From an uncultured delta proteobacterium (GTDB lineage Bacteria; Desulfobacterota; Binatia; Binatales; Binataceae), in assembly GCA_963842085.1 (NCBI GenBank), contig CAWJET010000001.1:2912001-2976000 (forward strand): a stretch of 64,000 nucleotides of DNA, given 5' to 3'. Below are positions 56,977 through 64,000 of the stretch, piece after piece; positions within the stretch are counted from its first letter, which is position 1; every line of letters begins with the position of its first letter. The notes beneath the pieces were generated by a model. It was not told the DNA's origin, did no database searches, and was given only the letters and a program-made list of their open reading frames with translations. Both the position numbers and the translations under genes were made by a program.

Positions 56977-58152
56977 TTACTTGGTCTCGCGCATTGCGCG
57001 CACCAGAATCGCCGCGAGCTCCGGGCGCGTGAATTCCGGCGGCGGCGCTTCCCCCGCGCGCAGCATCTCGCGGACTTTCGTGCCCGACAGTATCAAACGG
57101 TCCGCGTCGGTATGCGGGCAGGTCTTGAACGACGCCATCGCGTTGCATCGCTTGCAGTAAAAGGTGTTCTCGAACATCAGCGGCGTGATCCCGAGTTCCG
57201 CCGGCGCGAAGCGCTCGAAGATCTTCTGCGCGTCGTAGCTGCCGTAGTAACTGCCGACGCCGGCGTGGTCGCGCCCCACGATGAAATGCGTGCAGCCGTA
57301 GTTGCGCCGCGCGATGGCGTGCAGGATCGCCTCGCGCGGGCCGCCGTAGCGCATGTGCGCCGGGAACACGCCGATCATCGCGCGATTCTTCGGGTAGTAC
57401 AGGTCGAGCAGCACCTTGTAGGTCTCCATCCTGACCGCGGCGGGCACGTCGTCGCCCTTGGTCTCGCCGACCAGCGGATGGATCATCAGGCCGTCGCAGA
57501 TTTCCAGCGCCGCTTTCTGGATATACTCGTGCGCGCGATGGGTCGGGTTGCGGGTCTGGAAGGCGACGATCTTCTTCCAGCCACGCTCGCGGAACGCCGC
57601 GCGCGTCTGCCGCGGCTCGCGCGGAAATTCCAGGAACGTGCGCCCCGGTATCTCCTCGACCAGCGTGACCTTGCCCGCAATGCAGTACGGCGGCATCGAG
57701 GTGACGTTCTTCGCCCCCGGATGCGCATCCTCGGCAGTGCCGAACACGTTTTGCGCTTCTAGTTTGCGATCGACTTTGTAAATTTCCGCGAGCTTGAGAA
57801 TCGCCAGCCGCTTGCCGTCTTCGGTCGCCAGCGCGATCTCATTGCCCGTCTTCAGAGACTTCGCTGTCGCCTCATCGACGCCCAGCGTGATTGGAATCGA
57901 CCACGGTGCTCCCGACGCAAGGCGCATCTCGTCGCGCGAGCGTGTGTAATCGGCCTCGCCCATGAAGCCCGTCAGCGGCGAGAACGCGCCCGTCGCGAGC
58001 ATCTCGAGGTCGGCCAGGTCGCGCGCGTTGAGCGTGACGCTCGCGAGCTTCGCGGCATGCGCCGCCAGCGCAGCGCGCTCGGAGGCCGGCGCTTTCAGAT
58101 CGACCAGCTCGCCGCCGCCGTGCGCCCCGATTGCGTCGTCGCGCACGCTCAT
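56977..58152 (-). CDS. sat: Sulfate adenylyltransferase (Sat type)
   Basis: [57 protein letters not shown]. Confidence 0.96.
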
Positions 58153-58697
58153 CGCCGTCCTCCCCGGTTGATGTAGCTCAGCTCCTCGAGCCGCCCGATC
58201 AACTTGCCCAGGCTCTGGTCGACGGTTTCCACGCTGCTGTCGACGACCAGCTCGGGCTTCAGCGGCTCTTCGTACGGGTCCGACACGCCGGTGAAAGATT
58301 TGATCTCGCCGGCCAGCGCCTTCTTGTAGAGCCCCTTGACGTCGCGCTCGACGAGCTTGTCGATCGTGCAGCGCACGTACACTTCGAAGAAGCGGTCGTG
58401 CTTGCGGCGCACCTCGTCGCGAATCTCCCGGTAGGGCGAAATCGCCGCCGAAATCGCGATCACGCCGTTGCGCGACAGCAGATGGCACACGTAGCCGATC
58501 CGCCGGATGTTAATGTCGCGATCCTCCTTGGAAAAGCCGAGTCCCTTGGAAAGATTGGTGCGGACTTCGTCGCCGTCGAGGATTTCGACGCGATGCGCCC
58601 GACTGCGCAGTTCTTCGGCCGCCAGATTCGCAAGCGTGGATTTCCCCGCCCCGGACAGTCCCGTAAACCACAAGGTAAAGCCTTGATCCATCGGCAA
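58149..58697 (-). CDS. cysC: Adenylyl-sulfate kinase
   Basis: [46 protein letters not shown]. Confidence 0.96.
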
Positions 58698-58800: not shown

Positions 58801-58881
58801 AACCGGAACCGGCTTCGCTGGCCCGAAGCTGTCCGAGATCCTTGCGCTGCGCTCGCGATGCTCGCAGCGTTCAGGATGACA
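58801..58881 (-). repeat. Repeat family A, inverted copy; supplies the HAD stop codon
   Basis: Reverse complement reads TGTCATCCTGAACGCTGCGAGCATCGCGAGCGCAGCGCAAGGATCTCGGACAGCTTCGGGCCAGCGAAGCCGGTTCCGGTT. Confidence 0.85.
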
Positions 58882-59560
58882 AGCCAGCGGGCAGGTTCAG
58901 TTGAATCGCAAGCGCGGCCGGTGAGCCGAAGATTTCGGCGGCGCCCGCCGCCAACAGTCGATCCCGCGCGCTATCGGTAGGCGCGATTCCGTAAAACCTC
59001 ACGCCGCAACTTTGCGCGGCGCGAAGGTCGGCTTCGCTGTCGCCGACGAATGCGGCCTCCGATCGATCGATGGAAAATACTTCGAGCGCGCGAATCAGCA
59101 TGTCGGGCGCCGGCTTGAGTCCGAGCAGTGTGTCGCGCCCGACGATGGCATCGACGCATGGGTGCCCATTTCTGTCGAACCAGCGCGCGACCGTTCTCGA
59201 GGAGTTGGACGTCACGATCGCGACTGCGGCGCCGCTTTGTTTCAATGCCGCCAGTGTTTCGACTGCTCCTTCGAGCGGCTGTGCGCGATCGACTCCCGCA
59301 AGCTCGATCTTCTCGATTATCTCAGAAGCATGCCGCAGTCGTTCGATGACCTCAGCTCCGTTGGCTTGTGCGAGCATGAGGGTGCGGTAGGCATCGTAGA
59401 GCGGGAGGTTGCCGCGCGGGATTCGCGCGAACAGTTCGTCGGGCGCGCCGATCGAGCGCAGGTAGGGCTCGAGGATGAGCCGGCCGCCCGCCCAATCGAC
59501 CTCGGGCTCGAGCCGCGCGATCGTGTTGTCGAAGTCGAACATCCAGAGCTTGTACATCAC
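58871..59560 (-). CDS. HAD-family hydrolase/phosphatase
   Basis: FDFDNT motif I, VTSN, KPAPD, FVGDSEADL. Confidence 0.9.
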   Translation of the reverse strand: MMYKLWMFDFDNTIARLEPEVDWAGGRLILEPYLRSIGAPDELFARIPRGNLPLYDAYRTLMLAQANGAEVIERLRHASEIIEKIELAGVDRAQPLEGAVETLAALKQSGAAVAIVTSNSSRTVARWFDRNGHPCVDAIVGRDTLLGLKPAPDMLIRALEVFSIDRSEAAFVGDSEADLRAAQSCGVRFYGIAPTDSARDRLLAAGAAEIFGSPAALAIQLNLPAGLSS

Positions 59561-60159
59561 GGATCGACGCGAACCCTGGTCTCATAGCCGTCGAACTCGA
59601 TTGTCGCGCGCGACGGATTTTCCGCGTATCCGGCGAGCAGCTTGAATGCTTCCGCCGTCGCGAGCATCGCGATAAAATCCGCGGCCTCCGAACGCGTGCC
59701 GACCGATGCAGGCATCGACGCGTCGACGGTTCGCCCGCCCTGGGTTCGGGGGATGACGATAATTTTTCCCGGCGCGTCGAGACGCGCGATCACCAATGCT
59801 GGCACATCTCGATTGTTCGCGATCTCATGTGCAACCTTCCGAGCCGAATCACTTCCGACAATCACGAATGCCAAATTAATGCGTCCTCGTGGTTCATTCG
59901 CGACGGTGACGGATACGTCGGCATTCAGTGCGCGCGCTTGTGCGATCTTCTCGGCGAATCCGGCTTCGTTGCCGGCTACTCGAACGCCTATCGCTCCAAC
60001 TCCCGCACCGACCAGGTACGCGAGCGGCGCTTCGATATCGCGCGCGTCTCCCGCCAGCAGCATCCGTGCGGCGAGCAAGCGTTCCTGGCCGCGGCCGCCG
60101 ACGCGCGGCACGATGATTTGCCGGCTGTAGCGATCGATTTGCGCGTCAGTCAGGGTCAT
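59557..60159 (-). CDS. Degenerate ThiF/MoeB-like protein (keeps RYSRQ, lacks the ATP loop and all Cys)
   Basis: QIDRYSRQII...GGRGQERL, YLVGAGVG, LNADV, AEAFKLLAG; GxGxxG replaced by AGDARD; no SNLxRQ. Confidence 0.8.
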   Translation of the reverse strand: MTLTDAQIDRYSRQIIVPRVGGRGQERLLAARMLLAGDARDIEAPLAYLVGAGVGAIGVRVAGNEAGFAEKIAQARALNADVSVTVANEPRGRINLAFVIVGSDSARKVAHEIANNRDVPALVIARLDAPGKIIVIPRTQGGRTVDASMPASVGTRSEAADFIAMLATAEAFKLLAGYAENPSRATIEFDGYETRVRVDP

Positions 60160-60174
60160 CGCACACGCGCACGG

Positions 60175-60420
60175 TCACTCGATCACGTTCTTTTCGATTG
60201 GCTCGACGGTGACTCCGGTGCTGCGCAACCAGGTCAGCGCGCGTTCGATCTGATCCGAGCTGCCTTCGAATTCGACGGCGACGAGTCCCATCTCCTCGGA
60301 CACGCTCGCGCCCCGAATATTGAAAACGAGGTCGAACTTCTTCACCAGCTGGTAAAGGATCGGCTCCTTGATCAGCGTGCGCGGATAGCTCAGGTAGTAG
60401 CGTTCGTGGATACGTTCCAT
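60175..60420 (-). CDS. Stand-alone NIL-domain protein
   Basis: YPRTLIKEPILYQLVKKFDLVFNIRGASV...G....IERALTWLRSTGVTVEP. Confidence 0.85.
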   Translation of the reverse strand: MERIHERYYLSYPRTLIKEPILYQLVKKFDLVFNIRGASVSEEMGLVAVEFEGSSDQIERALTWLRSTGVTVEPIEKNVIE

Positions 60421-60427
60421 TTGCGGG

Positions 60428-61501
60428 TTACTTCTTCTTCCACTTGGCGATGACTTGTTGCAGGCGCTCGCGACGCCATTCCTGCCATCCGATCCACAAA
60501 TTCGTCGACAGATATTTGTCGCCGAAGTCGGCGAACACGGTGACTATCGTGCCTTCGCGAATTGAGCGCGCGACCCTGAGCGCTGCGATCATCGCGGCCC
60601 CCGACGATTGGCCGACCAGGATGCCTTCGGTCTGCCCGAGCGCGTACACCATCTCGTACGCTTCTTCGGTGCCGACCGGGATTTTGTCGTCGAGCTGTTT
60701 TTCGTGATAGATGCCGGGTACGATCGAGCTCGCCATGTGCTTGAGGCCCTCGAGCCCGTGCATCGCGTCGTCCGGCTCGACCGCAATCACTTTGAGCGCG
60801 CGGTTCTTCGCTTTGAGAAACCTGCCCGTGCCCATCACCGTGCCGCCGGTGCCGATCGCCGCAACGAAATGGGTCACCTGGCCGCGCGTCTGGCGCCAGA
60901 TTTCCGGGCCGGTGGTCTCGAAATGCGCAATCGAGTTGGCCTCGTTGTTGTACTGGTCGGGCTTGAAGTAGCGCCCGGGGTTGTCCTCGATAAGGCGGCG
61001 GCACATGACGATCGCGCCGTCGGAACCTTCCATCGGATCCGAGAAATGAATTTTTGCGCCGTAAGCCTCGACGATTTTCTTGCGCTCGCGGCTCACGTTC
61101 GACGGCATCACCAGCTCGACCGGGTAGCCGAGCGTCGCACCAAGCATCGCCAGCGCGATTCCGGTGTTGCCCGAGGTCGAATCCAGGATCACCTTGCCTG
61201 GTTTCAGCTTGCCTTCGTTGATTCCCACCTCGAGCATTTTCTTCGCCGGCCGATCCTTGACCGAGCCGCCGGGGTTGAAGCCCTCGAGCTTGGCGAAAAT
61301 CCGCACGCCCGCGGGGATCAACCCCGCCGTCAGCCGGGTGATCTCCAGCAGCGGAGTATTGCCGACGAGATCGAGCACGCTGTTCGCGCGCCCAACCGGG
61401 ACGATCTCGCGGAGCGGCGCGACACGGCTGCCCGCGCTGTCGCGAGCGCCGGCGTCAGCGTCCGCCGGCAATCGCGGGAACGATTGAGATGTCGTCGCCA
61501 T
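60428..61501 (-). CDS. cysM: PLP-dependent cysteine synthase family protein (CysM-like)
   Basis: VGNTPL, KLEGFNPGGSVKDR, TSGNTGIAL, DQYNN, GTGGT, GLEGLK, GQSSGA, KYLS. Confidence 0.88.
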   Translation of the reverse strand: MATTSQSFPRLPADADAGARDSAGSRVAPLREIVPVGRANSVLDLVGNTPLLEITRLTAGLIPAGVRIFAKLEGFNPGGSVKDRPAKKMLEVGINEGKLKPGKVILDSTSGNTGIALAMLGATLGYPVELVMPSNVSRERKKIVEAYGAKIHFSDPMEGSDGAIVMCRRLIEDNPGRYFKPDQYNNEANSIAHFETTGPEIWRQTRGQVTHFVAAIGTGGTVMGTGRFLKAKNRALKVIAVEPDDAMHGLEGLKHMASSIVPGIYHEKQLDDKIPVGTEEAYEMVYALGQTEGILVGQSSGAAMIAALRVARSIREGTIVTVFADFGDKYLSTNLWIGWQEWRRERLQQVIAKWKKK

Positions 61502-61733
61502 CCTTTACCTTGGAATTGATCGCATCGAGGAAGCGGACGTCGTCGCCGTTGAGATAAATGTTGACGAAGCGGCGGATGTCGCCTTTTTCATCGAGCAGCC
61601 GCTCGCGTATTCCCGGATGGCGCCGATCGAGGTCTTCGATCACCGCCTTGATCGAAGCGCCGTCGGCCGGAACTTCGTCGACACCCGCGGTGAACCTTCG
61701 AAGTGGAGTTGGAACTCTGACGCGTACTGCCAT
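61455..61733 (-). CDS. MoaD/ThiS/CysO-type ubiquitin-fold sulfur carrier ending GG-R
   Basis: VRVPTPLRRFT...RRFVNIYLNGDDVRFL...DGDDISIVPAIAGGR. Confidence 0.93.
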   Translation of the reverse strand: MAVRVRVPTPLRRFTAGVDEVPADGASIKAVIEDLDRRHPGIRERLLDEKGDIRRFVNIYLNGDDVRFLDAINSKVKDGDDISIVPAIAGGR

Positions 61734-61803
61734 GATTGGGGACTTGCCTCCTGATTGAATTGCTACACTTATGCCCGCCGCATAGTCCAAACAAGCGCCG
61801 CCG

Positions 61804-63072
61804 TTACGCCGCGCTGTCTGCGGTGCGTTTCCCATTGGTGAGCCGGTCGAACAACGCGTCGAAATCCTTCAGCCGCGCGTCGATGATCGACGGCTGCTCG
61901 ATCGCGTTGGCAACCGCCTCGAGCGTCTTGTAGCCGTTGCCGGTTATCGACACGACCACGGTTTCGTCGGCCTTGATGCGTCCCTGTTTGACCAGCTTGA
62001 GCGTGACCGCGAGCGTGGTGCCGCCGGCGGGCTCGGCGAAAATTCCCTCGGTGCGCGCGAGCAACTTGATCGCGTCGATGATCTCCGGGTCGGTGGCGAC
62101 GTCGCCCCATCCGCCGGAATCGCGCACCGCCTTGAGCACATAGAAGCCGTCGGCCGGATTTCCGATCGCGATCGATTTCGCGATCGTGTCGGGCTTCACC
62201 GGCGTTATCAGGTCAGTGCCCTTGTGCAGCGCGTGGATAACCGGCGCGGAGCCGGCCGCCTGCGCGGAATGAATCTTGAACTCGCCGCTCTTGATTAGCC
62301 CGACCTCCTTCAGCTCCTTAAATGCCTTCGCGACTTTCGGCAGAATCGTCCCGCCCGCGGTTGGCACCACGATATGGTCCGGCAGCCGCCAGCCGAGCTG
62401 CTCGGCGACTTCGAAGCCGAAAGTCTTTGCACCCTCGGTGTAGAACGGACGCAGGTTGATATTGACGAAGGCCCACCCGTACTTGTCCGCGATCTCGCTG
62501 CACAGCCGGTTGACGTCGTCGTAGTTGCCCCGAATCGTGATCACGCGCGCGCCGTAAATCGTCGAGCCGACGATTTTTCCCGACTCCACGCCTTCGGGCA
62601 TGAAGATGTAGCATTGCAGTCCCGCGCGCGCCGCGTGCGCCGCCACCGCCGTCGCCAGGTTGCCGGTCGACGCGCAGGATACGGTGGTGAAGCCGAACTC
62701 GCGCGCCTTGGTGATTGCCACCGACACGACGCGGTCCTTGTACGACAGGGTCGGATGGTTGACGGTGTCGTCCTTGACGTAGAGATGCTCGAGCCCGAGA
62801 TCCGCGCCCAGCCGCTTGCAATGCAGCAGTGGGGTGAAGCCGGAGTTGGGGCCGACGACCTCGTTCTCGTTGAAATCGACCGGCAGCAATTCGCGATAGC
62901 GCCACAGATTGTGCGGACGTCTCTCGATTATCGAGCGCGAGAGCGCCGCGCGAATCCGCGCGTAGTCGTAGGTGACCTCGAGCGGACCGAAGCACGTCTC
63001 GCAGACGTGGAGCGGGCTTATCGGATACTCCTGGCCGCATTCGCGACACTTCAAATTGGTGATGTAGCTCAT
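61804..63072 (-). CDS. thrC: Threonine synthase-like PLP enzyme (possible O-phosphohomoserine sulfhydrylase)
   Basis: CRECG...CETCFGPL zinc ribbon, HPTLSYKDR, CASTGNL, EGAKT, SIAIGNPADG, EGIFAEPAGG, ITGNGYKT. Confidence 0.85.
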   Translation of the reverse strand: MSYITNLKCRECGQEYPISPLHVCETCFGPLEVTYDYARIRAALSRSIIERRPHNLWRYRELLPVDFNENEVVGPNSGFTPLLHCKRLGADLGLEHLYVKDDTVNHPTLSYKDRVVSVAITKAREFGFTTVSCASTGNLATAVAAHAARAGLQCYIFMPEGVESGKIVGSTIYGARVITIRGNYDDVNRLCSEIADKYGWAFVNINLRPFYTEGAKTFGFEVAEQLGWRLPDHIVVPTAGGTILPKVAKAFKELKEVGLIKSGEFKIHSAQAAGSAPVIHALHKGTDLITPVKPDTIAKSIAIGNPADGFYVLKAVRDSGGWGDVATDPEIIDAIKLLARTEGIFAEPAGGTTLAVTLKLVKQGRIKADETVVVSITGNGYKTLEAVANAIEQPSIIDARLKDFDALFDRLTNGKRTADSAA

Positions 63073-63089
63073 CGTTTCCTCGATTCCTG

Positions 63090-63797
63090 TTACTTGCCCG
63101 GCGCTTGCGCCTCGCGACGGTCGGGCTTCCACGCGCCGCAGCCGCATCCACGGCGCGGACTAACCGCCGCGATTCGCACCCGGGCCGGGCCGGACGCGTC
63201 GTACGTGAGAATTTTTCCTGAGAGCAACGGTGTTTGCGCGCGCATCGCGCGCATCGCCTCGGACGCCTGTATCTCGCCAATCGCGCCCGCGACCGGCCCG
63301 GCGATCCCAGCCTCGCGGCAACTCTGGATTTCGTCCTCATCGGGCGCCGTCTCGAACACGCAGCGGATACACGCCGTCTCGCCCGGGATCACCGTCATCG
63401 CCTGCCCGGTCATCCCGACCACGCCGCCATAAACGAAGGGCGTCCGCGCCGCGATACACGTGTCGTTGATCAAAAGTTTCGCGGCCGGACTGTCCGTCGC
63501 GTCGATAACAAAGTCGTGTGCGGCGACCAGACGCGCCGCGTTGGACGCGTCGAGCGCAACCGCATGCCGCTTGACGTTGAGGTCAGGAAACCGCTCGGCG
63601 AGCCATCGTGCGGCAGCGTCGACCTTGGGCGTGCCGATATCGACGGGACGATAAATCACCTGGCGCGCGAGATTAGACAGCTCGACCGGGTCCGGGTCGA
63701 CCAGTGTCATCCCCCGAGCACCGGCGCGCCCGAGCGCCCACGATGCGGGGACGCCAAGTCCTCCCAAGCCAACGATCAGTATTCGTTCCGTTGCCAC
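63090..63797 (-). CDS. moeB: ThiF/MoeB adenylyltransferase (E1-like) lacking the N-terminal RYSRQ segment
   Basis: IVGLGGLG, DPDPVELSNLARQ, GTPK, DATD, CIRC, SCREAG, C-terminal CGC; an in-frame TGA lies 15 codons upstream of GTG 63797. Confidence 0.88.
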   Translation of the reverse strand: MATERILIVGLGGLGVPASWALGRAGARGMTLVDPDPVELSNLARQVIYRPVDIGTPKVDAAARWLAERFPDLNVKRHAVALDASNAARLVAAHDFVIDATDSPAAKLLINDTCIAARTPFVYGGVVGMTGQAMTVIPGETACIRCVFETAPDEDEIQSCREAGIAGPVAGAIGEIQASEAMRAMRAQTPLLSGKILTYDASGPARVRIAAVSPRRGCGCGAWKPDRREAQAPGK

Positions 63798-63905
63798 GTC
63801 AGTCGCGCCTCTCCCGTCTTGTCGAGAGCCGCAACGCCGTCAGTGCCTATGGGAAGCCGGTGAAAATCCTGCGATGGCGATAAGACGAGGGCTTAATACA
63901 CTCGC

Positions 63906-64000
63906 CTTATCTTCCAGGAGACTCTCGCGCGGAGAACCCCTGCAGGAGTTAGCACCAGCACCCATCACGGGCCGGTTGCTGCGGCATCAGCGGGCCAGTC
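63906..64000 (-). ncRNA. SAM-I riboswitch aptamer (5' end lies beyond the window)
   Basis: Minus strand reads GACTGGCCCGCTGATGCCGCAGCAACC...GGTGCTAACTCCTGCAG...CTGGAAGATAAG, the S-box consensus, upstream of a sulfur-metabolism operon. Confidence 0.92.

Follow-up and report, generated by a model that had tools for sequence, protein, structure and literature searches.

Can the one active site of an E1-like activating enzyme be divided between two bacterial genes, one carrying the ATP site and the other the helix that completes it? The question is raised by an operon on the minus strand of a 64,000-nucleotide (nt) stretch of DNA from an uncultured soil bacterium (assembly GCA_963842085.1, contig CAWJET010000001.1, positions 2,912,001 to 2,976,000; G000:C1:2912001-2976000 in our genome set), whose named relatives are Candidatus Binatus and metagenome-assembled genomes (MAGs) of Binataceae, within the Binatota. 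We call this whole stretch the window, and all coordinates below are window positions. Two genes of the operon, MoeB-1 and MoeB-2, encode proteins related to the adenylyltransferases MoeB and ThiF, and a first-pass annotation of the window had described them as complementary halves that form an obligate heterodimer. We assign a probability of about 0.7 to the reading that MoeB-1 and MoeB-2 together constitute a heterodimeric E1-like adenylyltransferase with one active site, which would adenylate a ThiS-fold sulfur carrier and thereby feed cysteine and homocysteine synthesis.

MoeB-1 is an open reading frame (ORF) of 235 amino acids (aa) with a GTG start, and has the motifs GLGGLG (residues 10-15), SNLARQ (41-46), DATD (99-102) and CIRC (143-146), followed by Cys160 and CGC (218-220). 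It scores 210.6 bits against PF00899 (E-value 2.4e-62; cut-off 28.1 bits) and belongs to that family. Its residues 4-218 cover profile positions 21-236 of 238, such that the first 20 profile positions are missing; similarly, a profile of 77 MoeB-1 orthologues aligns only from residue 29 of Escherichia coli ThiF and residue 31 of E. coli MoeB. The ATP/Mg-site elements that we looked for are all present, namely the Gly-rich loop, the SNLxRQ arginine (MoeB Arg73), the Lys and the Asp, together with the crossover-loop Cys (residue equivalences in MoeB numbering follow passages of PMC13139853 and PMC12355090), and the residues G10, G12, G15, D34, S41, N42, L43, R45, Q46, K58, D99, D102, C143, C146 and C160 are invariant in all 77 orthologues. 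By contrast, MoeB-1 lacks the N-terminal helices that bear the trans-acting arginine in the known enzymes (MoeB Arg14, ThiF Arg11), and its AlphaFold model (pLDDT 90.6, pTM 0.89) opens with the first strand. A Pfam scan found no rhodanese domain in MoeB-1, and its 235 aa include no insertion of a catalytic-Cys domain.

A MoeB-1 without these helices could be mistaken for a truncated gene call. We rejected a longer protein, whether reached through an upstream start or through a frameshift: there is an in-frame TGA 15 codons upstream of the GTG, none of the three frames upstream contains an RYxRQ-like stretch, and there is no room for a longer N-terminus because a complete SAM-I (S-adenosylmethionine, SAM) riboswitch occupies positions 63904-64022, ending about 107 nt before the MoeB-1 start. 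The motifs listed in the first-pass annotation are all in place, and its argument that an upstream stop excludes a longer MoeB-1 holds, with the riboswitch lying beyond that stop.

MoeB-2 is complementary to MoeB-1. This ORF (ATG start, 200 aa) carries QIDRYSRQ...GQERL near its start and the C-terminal segment AEAFKLLAG, but has no GxGxxG at the loop position, has lost the SNLxRQ segment by deletion and contains no Cys at all; the three absences had been described from the sequence at the outset. PF00899 matches it over profile positions 1-49 only (20.6 bits), below the cut-off for membership, and NCBIfam MoeB models match residues 2-59 only (E-value 3.7e-10). A profile built from 70 members of the MoeB-2 family aligns with residues 3-248 of the E. 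coli MoeB chain 1jw9_B (E-value 1.3e-24), with a gap of about 18 residues that falls at the MoeB SNLQRQ segment. The predicted structure (pLDDT 91.6, pTM 0.88) has helices at residues 5-13 and 21-30 followed by a Rossmann-like core, and a Foldseek search with this model returned Uba4, ThiF and MoeB at the top (TM-score 0.70), then PaaA, MccB and SAE1, the inactive subunit of the SUMO E1. Homology and fold thus extend over the whole adenylation domain, and because the profile match spans MoeB residues 3-248 and structural matches accompany it, MoeB-2 is a whole but gutted adenylation domain derived from a full-length paralogue, not a fragment.

The part of MoeB-2 that would matter most to a partner is the part that is best conserved. 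In 70 of 70 full-length cluster representatives, L3, R10, R13, Q25 and G53 are invariant, and the first two helices contain most of the near-invariant positions (Q7, I8, Y11, S12, Q14, I15, G21, G22, R27, L28). R13 aligns with MoeB Arg14, and R10 with Arg11; among 17 class-level MoeB-2 copies the arginine of SRQ is constant, and four of them have H, I, L or A in place of the first arginine. The ratio of non-synonymous to synonymous substitution rates (dN/dS), calculated for the window copies against those of ten near relatives (dS 0.5-0.9), is 0.20-0.33 for MoeB-2, 0.15-0.24 for MoeB-1 and 0.14-0.18 for the HAD-family phosphatase gene of the operon; MoeB-2 is under purifying selection. Pseudogene-like decay of MoeB-2, which the first-pass annotation had named as an observation that would count against a heterodimer, is not what these values describe. 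The family is sizeable: among 2522 candidates clustered at 90% identity, 1239 match at E ≤ 1e-3, and among 50% representatives there are 1717 matches at E ≤ 1e-3, 158 at ≤ 1e-10 and 39 at ≤ 1e-30. Members with a source name are mostly labelled "hypothetical protein" in the search listing. A shorter MoeB-2 variant of 168-172 aa occurs in L071, L073, L074 and L075 and in G004, the unpublished genome G023 and G030, with an in-frame loss of approximately residues 58-83; its first 57 residues are 88-91% identical to those of the window copy, and it represents further erosion of the dead Rossmann core that spares the helix.

If MoeB-1 depends on MoeB-2, the two should be found together. Our locus survey covered the best 80 of 527 genome loci matching the MoeB-2 profile (Binataceae). 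A MoeB-1 ORF was found in 65 of the 80, and the stretch that separates the upstream stop from the Gly loop, 9-71 residues long, is free of a helix motif in all 65. The remaining 15 comprise contig ends, frameshifted assemblies and three unlinked cases (L082, L083, L099), and all three unlinked genomes, one of which, G195, is unpublished, still hold a helix-less MoeB-1 elsewhere, in two of them beside the ThrC-like gene. In other genera of the class, the 24 genomes that we sampled first yielded 17 split pairs, one MoeB-2 at a contig end, one genome with two complete paralogues, three with one complete MoeB and no MoeB-2, and two with the housekeeping gene only (84% and 82% complete). We then used a complete operon MoeB as query in a census of 161 class genomes that are at least 90% complete: 134 have both forms, 23 have a single complete MoeB without MoeB-2, both genes are absent from one (G086), and three are limited by contig ends (G097, a fragment; G114 and G129, in which the contig stops immediately after MoeB-1 or CysM). 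Those 23 genomes, whose MoeB bears the helix, belong to families f3, f14 and f16, and the MoeB-2 profile matches only that gene and the housekeeping gene in them. Among the other 138 genomes, 113 were checked and all 113 hold a second helix-bearing ORF besides the housekeeping one, as do G000 and the unpublished G018; the remaining 23, with at most two matches to the query, include 19 with MoeB-2. The helix-less state of MoeB-1 was read among the matches listed (150 of 460), and adjacency of the pair was cross-checked by coordinates in about a dozen genomes only. No helix-less MoeB-1 without a MoeB-2 was found in a contiguous locus of the 161-genome census. The co-occurrence check proposed in the first-pass annotation came out in favour of the heterodimer, with MoeB-2 in none of the 23 genomes that have a helix-bearing single MoeB. 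Chance does not explain the complementary pattern, which we met again in every related genome that we looked at. The nearest MoeB-2 clusters name only Candidatus Binatota, and the best 80 of 527 loci all come from MAGs labelled Binatus, Binataceae or something similar, in a search that did not cover other phyla systematically.

The two genes also stay together when their neighbours are lost. MoeB-1 is followed directly by MoeB-2 in nine loci (L044, L046, L047, L049, L051, L054, L055, L064 and L102), with a 4-nt overlap in L064. In a Binatus sub-lineage (nine loci; G034, G002, G008, G014, G031 and others) the ThrC-like, carrier, CysM and NIL genes are gone and the series MoeB-1-MoeB-2-HAD-CysC-Sat is intact; the median pairwise dN/dS values of the two E1 genes in this sub-lineage are 0.32 and 0.35 (eight loci, 28 pairs). 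Because the pair is intact where the carrier has been lost, MoeB-1 and MoeB-2 are tied more tightly to each other than to the carrier. Rates of evolution, compared by partial Mantel tests across 38 kin loci and eight operon genes with the shared trend removed, add a weak hint: the residual covariation of MoeB-1 and MoeB-2 (r 0.52, given without a significance test) ranks second of 28 pairs. The strongest covariation is between CysM and the HAD phosphatase (r 0.64), which hints that the HAD enzyme may work with CysM, for example on a phosphorylated substrate. We considered the NIL-domain protein as a partner of MoeB-2 and rejected it: several class loci have the pair and neither a NIL nor a ThrC-like gene, and the covariation of MoeB-2 with NIL is -0.07.

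Prediction of a complex of the two proteins had been suggested at the outset. Made with both alignments, it gave an ipSAE of 0.92 in all three runs, against 0.00 for the highest-scoring of three controls. The pass mark that we applied is reached by 58 of 80 solved complexes and by 2 of 110 mismatched pairs. Contacts agree between runs by at least 99%, and partner pLDDT is at least 87. The interface comprises residues 6, 9-14 and 16-20 of MoeB-2 (the RYSRQ helix) together with its C-terminal helix and strands, and residues 17, 20-21, 24, 40-41, 43-45 (within SNLARQ), 162-179 and 197-209 of MoeB-1. In this ATP-free model, MoeB-2 residues 9-14 contact MoeB-1 residues 40-41 and 43-45; the model places the arginine-bearing segment of MoeB-2 against the SNLARQ segment of MoeB-1, where an arginine may reach the ATP site, as the first-pass annotation had proposed. 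The prediction reproduces the canonical dimer of MoeB/ThiF and lays the MoeB-2 helix over the MoeB-1 nucleotide site. Since this dimer has already been solved for relatives, the pass shows likeness and is no proof of binding.

The history of the pair can be followed within one class. In a tree of 52 proteins (IQ-TREE, LG+C20, rooted on four housekeeping MoeB proteins; support given as ultrafast bootstrap/SH-aLRT), a MoeB-1 side of 25 rows and a MoeB-2 side of 23 rows are each supported at 100/99, and the housekeeping outgroup at 100/100. The sub-clades of the two sides are congruent, and the single complete genes of family f3 fall on the MoeB-1 side (f14 and f16 are not in the tree). Judged from this tree, a complete operon MoeB was duplicated once within the Binatia, and complementary losses in the two copies then gave rise to the pair. 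Family f6 retains intermediate states: G041 and G136 hold two complete paralogues, each with the helix, the Gly loop and SNLxRQ, and in G106 the first copy is without the helix and the second has the helix and GAGAVG, with SNLxRQ changed to SLTALRRQ. Forcing the 20 helix-less MoeB-1 proteins into one clade, a group named after the tree had been seen, costs 22.07 log-likelihood units (p 0.032 in the approximately unbiased (AU) test), and the helix may for this reason have been lost more than once.

We propose the following mechanism. The ATP/Mg site, the zinc cysteines and the crossover-loop Cys belong to MoeB-1, which is without the N-terminal ~30 residues of MoeB; MoeB-2 would bring the adenylation-domain fold, the canonical dimer surface and the first two helices, completing and stabilising MoeB-1 through the normal dimer surface. 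MoeB Arg14 and ThiF Arg11 act on the ATP gamma-phosphate from the neighbouring subunit, according to passages of PMC13139853, and MoeB-2 Arg13 (equivalent to E. coli MoeB Arg14) and Arg10 would be lent in trans to the gamma-phosphate at the MoeB-1 site in the same way. The pair would adenylate the terminal glycine of the carrier once its extra residue has been trimmed, and the carrier would then be thiocarboxylated and serve CysM-type cysteine and MetM-type homocysteine synthesis, in an operon presumably switched by SAM and with sulfate-activation genes at its end. By its motifs, the pair has one ATP site. What the analysis shows are these sequence features, their distribution, the selection on the genes, their phylogeny and a complex model that passes. 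That the two proteins physically bind, that the arginine has a catalytic role, and what the substrate and the sulfur donor are, we infer.

Several points weigh against this reading. All the support for a heterodimer is in silico. The complex prediction may owe much to the solved MoeB/ThiF homodimers, and no homodimer was scored alongside it. The genomes compared are kin, and the perfect co-occurrence may rest on few evolutionary events; the AU result for more than one loss of the helix is marginal, and long-branch effects are a risk with the fast-evolving MoeB-2 branches. A few genomes have a broken MoeB-2, which is split in two frames in G003, G006 and G020 and interrupted by an internal TGA in G032 and G161. 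In five genomes of the Binatus sub-lineage that keeps the pair, no orthologue of the carrier was found (best identity 35-42%; none in G014), and none of the ThrC-like protein (best 33-38%); the first-pass annotation's naming of the co-encoded carrier as the substrate is therefore unproven. Lastly, according to passages of PMC13139853 that cite Lake 2001 and Nagy 2016, the arginine finger is dispensable in E. coli MoeB (Arg14) and ThiF (Arg11) and absent from E. coli TcdA, and the same source reports that the R59A substitution in yeast Tcd1 had little effect. Because the MoeB and ThiF fingers are reported to be non-essential, the word "obligate" in the first-pass annotation is unproven; MoeB-1 may depend on MoeB-2 for its structure and not for catalysis, or may be active by itself.

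In its full form, this last possibility is that MoeB-1 is a self-sufficient homodimer without an arginine finger, and that MoeB-2 has a separate, non-catalytic job, such as docking of the carrier, scaffolding or regulation, in which it forms no dimer with MoeB-1. E1-like domains that lack an ATP site and bind peptides are known in enzymes that make ribosomally synthesised and post-translationally modified peptides, and in most loci MoeB-1 and MoeB-2 are at opposite ends of the operon. The reported dispensability of the finger in MoeB and ThiF, and its absence from TcdA, favour the same view (PMC13139853, in part). We nonetheless consider it unlikely, since it leaves unexplained why MoeB-2 is absent from precisely those genomes in which MoeB retains the helix (0 of 23), why conservation in MoeB-2 is highest in the helix that acts in trans in MoeB, and why the two genes become adjacent and overlapping once the rest of the operon is lost; the gulf between the complex model and its controls (0.92 against 0.00), and the lack of rate covariation between MoeB-2 and NIL, also argue against it.

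MoeB-2 could instead pair with another partner, such as the housekeeping MoeB/MoeZ-like enzyme, and modulate it; this enzyme has the same fold and dimer type and is present in nearly every genome searched. Such a partnership is very improbable: the 23 genomes without MoeB-2 still hold the housekeeping enzyme, MoeB-2 tracks MoeB-1 and not the housekeeping enzyme, and the latter needs no donor because it has a RYSRH helix of its own. Still further from likely, and already contradicted by the data, is the idea that MoeB-2 is a functionless, decaying remnant of a duplicated gene. All of its catalytic motifs are gone, it evolves faster than its neighbours, some genomes have lost residues 58-83 in addition, and a few copies are broken; a pseudogene is contradicted by its dN/dS, by its conservation (R10 and R13 in 70 of 70 representatives, in a protein with a confidently modelled fold) and by its distribution, with an intact MoeB-2 in 134 of the 138 class genomes that lack a complete MoeB. 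The broken copies are in assemblies whose neighbouring genes are also split. ORFs of ThrC, CysM, MoeB-1 or MoeB-2 are divided into two or three in L050, L073, L075, L076, L080, L095, L096, L111 and L123, and these splits in MAG loci look like assembly frameshift errors, not decay of one gene.

The pair is part of a run of nine minus-strand genes behind the riboswitch, in the order MoeB-1, ThrC-like, carrier, CysM-like, NIL, MoeB-2, HAD, CysC and Sat (Table 1). Start codons were set at Met26 of the longest ORF for the ThrC-like gene, where ortholog alignments begin (query residue 26), and at Met35 of the longest ORF for the carrier; the true start of Sat is probably near 58152, since ortholog alignments begin at query residue ~113-125.

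Table 1. Features of the sulfur operon in the window, and the housekeeping MoeB gene of the same genome
Feature	Position	Strand	Basis or remark
SAM-I riboswitch (S box), operon leader	63904..64000, extends to 64022 (22 nt past window end)	-	RF00162
MoeB-1, predicted active ThiF/MoeB-type adenylyltransferase subunit	63090..63797	-	PF00899 210.6 bits; without N-terminal arginine-finger helices
ThrC-like pyridoxal-phosphate (PLP) enzyme, candidate MetM-type homocysteine synthase	61804..63072	-	PF00291 E 8.5e-73; NF006050 328.5 bits
Carrier, ThiS/MoaD fold (CysO/MetO-like), C-terminus AIAGG-R	61455..61733	-	PF02597 E 1.2e-14; SAMP1/MoaD family matches
CysM-like cysteine synthase (PLP)	60428..61501	-	PF00291 E 1.9e-69; TIGR01138 366.5 bits (cut-off 394.2)
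NIL-domain protein, stand-alone, 81 aa	60175..60420	-	PF09383 E 2.3e-15
MoeB-2, degenerate ThiF/MoeB paralogue	59557..60159	-	RYSRQ helix and fold kept; no ATP-site motifs, no Cys
HAD-family phosphatase	58871..59560	-	PF13419 E 1e-22; start overlaps MoeB-2 stop by 4 nt
CysC, adenosine 5'-phosphosulfate (APS) kinase	58149..58697	-	PF01583 E 7.7e-60
Sat, ATP sulfurylase (longest ORF)	56977..58488	-	PF01747 E 1.2e-95, PF14306
Housekeeping MoeB/MoeZ-like gene, full-length, own RYSRH helix	G000:C1:3000346-3001062		Same genome, outside window

The riboswitch scores 48.1 bits with RF00162 when clipped at the window end, and 89.8 bits where it is whole (L002, 2261-2379 on the minus strand; model positions 1-108). 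A SAM-I riboswitch also precedes the first MoeB gene in L027, L037, L143 and L029, and none was found at gathering score in L054, L102, L024 or L032. A hairpin and, behind it, a short U run separate the riboswitch from the MoeB-1 start. A SAM riboswitch fits an operon linked to methionine.

The carrier has the ThiS fold as well as the C-terminal Gly-Gly expected of a substrate for such an enzyme: across loci, its C-terminus is AGGR in 51, ends in GG itself in 5, and has GG followed by one or two residues in about 20 others. Because GG is followed by at least one extra residue in nearly all orthologues, C-terminal trimming would be needed. No JAMM protease is encoded within the operon, and the sole Prok-JAB gene of the genome is at G000:C2:964090-964395; neither a MoeZ-type rhodanese activator nor a Mec/JAMM protease was found in the operon. 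As a model for the operon we use the CysO-CysM and MetO-MetM thiocarboxylate routes, as described in parts of 10.1101/2024.10.14.618325 and PMC12172450. The ThrC-like protein exceeds the cut-off of the threonine synthase model NF006050 (328.5 bits; cut-off 303); by context and analogy with those routes, it is a candidate MetM. In G034 (L136), one of the genomes of the Binatus sub-lineage, the nearest ThiS-fold gene adjoins what by eye looks like a molybdenum-enzyme gene.

The NIL protein is highly conserved, with dN of 0.00-0.02 in near relatives and a C-terminal EKNVIE in 72 of 73 orthologues. In class-level loci it is usually gained or lost together with the ThrC-like gene, the exceptions being L024 (ThrC only) and L036 (NIL only). 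Metatranscriptome contigs from four soil runs (85-95% alike) span the ThrC-like, carrier, CysM and NIL genes, and the NIL/MoeB-2 junction is bridged in three runs; every RNA run holds at most 6% of the words sampled. These contigs come from relatives, their level and strand are unreadable and carry-over of DNA is possible, and we did not use them as evidence of expression.

How does the pair compare with known E1-like systems? Bacterial MoeB/ThiF-type proteins are described as symmetric homodimers in the sections of PMC10557695, PMC12355090 and PMC11354881 that treat them, and two-polypeptide E1s are treated as eukaryotic, the bacterial asymmetric exception being BilD, a fused IAD-AAD enzyme of a defence system (PMC10557695, in part). 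The closest solved relatives of both proteins, the E. coli MoeB and ThiF homodimers (1JW9, 1ZUD), have the same fold, a ThiS/MoaD-fold substrate and the zinc site that MoeB-1 also has; they differ in being symmetric, with two active sites and with both helix and ATP site in each subunit. In the eukaryotic heterodimers NAE1(APPBP1)-UBA3 and SAE1(Aos1)-SAE2(Uba2), as in the Binatia pair, two distinct adenylation-fold polypeptides have a single ATP site and the inactive subunit keeps the N-terminal arginine helix; by its anatomy, the MoeB-1/MoeB-2 pair likewise has two distinct adenylation-fold subunits and one ATP site. Sequence similarity of MoeB-2 to SAE1 is weak (E-value ~1e-3 with the family profile; 1e-6 with Foldseek). 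Unlike the eukaryotic E1s, the pair has no catalytic-Cys domain insertion and no ubiquitin-fold domain, scans for protein families revealed no E2-like gene in the operon, and the product is most likely a thiocarboxylate rather than a conjugate. MoeB-2 is smaller than MoeB, whereas the inactive subunits of eukaryotic E1s are larger, and the origin of the pair, by duplication inside the Binatia, is independent and much more recent.

Two further systems resemble the pair in part. Yeast Tcd1-Tcd2, the ct6A dehydratase, is described in passages of PMC13139853 as a pair of ThiF-family paralogues in which the inactive partner, without the ATP-coordinating arginine, supplies an arginine finger and the active partner supplies none; it differs in being eukaryotic, in acting on tRNA, in having extra C-terminal domains and in that Tcd2 retains its N-terminal region. 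BilD, of the Bil antiviral system, combines one inactive and one active adenylation domain, and the inactive domain gives Arg9 to the active site, as reported in the part of PMC10557695 that deals with it; its domains are fused in one chain, it has a Cys domain and an E2, it acts in defence and not in metabolism, and it has no close sequence relation to the pair. Bacterial E1 asymmetry therefore has a precedent in fused form (BilD, in the same part of PMC10557695). In metabolic setting, the operon is closest to the CysO-CysM-Mec-MoeZ system of Mycobacterium and MetM-MetO of Streptomyces albulus, with which it shares a ThiS-fold carrier ending in GG plus extra residues and CysM-like and ThrC-like enzymes, and a SAM riboswitch lies upstream as reported for metM (PMC12172450, in part). 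The activator in Mycobacterium and Streptomyces is a single MoeZ with a rhodanese domain, whereas the Binatia have a split pair without one. In function, its nearest parallels are NAE1-UBA3, SAE1-SAE2 and Tcd1-Tcd2, and the pair is set apart from all of these in being bacterial, encoded by two genes, part of primary sulfur metabolism and traceable in origin within one class. Our literature searches, which did not extend to supplementary tables, found no published description of such a two-gene bacterial pair.

The Binatia may thus have repeated, recently and traceably, the step that produced asymmetric E1s: after duplication of a symmetric MoeB homodimer's gene, the ATP site would have disappeared from one copy and the arginine-finger helices, perhaps repeatedly, from the other, leaving an obligate heterodimer with one site. 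We hold this broader proposal tentatively, at slightly less than even odds. Relatives appear frozen at each stage, with one complete gene, with two complete genes, with a half-degenerate copy and with a fully split pair. A MoeB made by two genes with one active site would be a natural experiment on the origin of enzyme asymmetry and of obligate heteromers. If the proposal is true, the constructive-neutral ratchet proposed for eukaryotic E1s could be studied with living bacterial intermediates, in primary sulfur metabolism rather than in protein conjugation.

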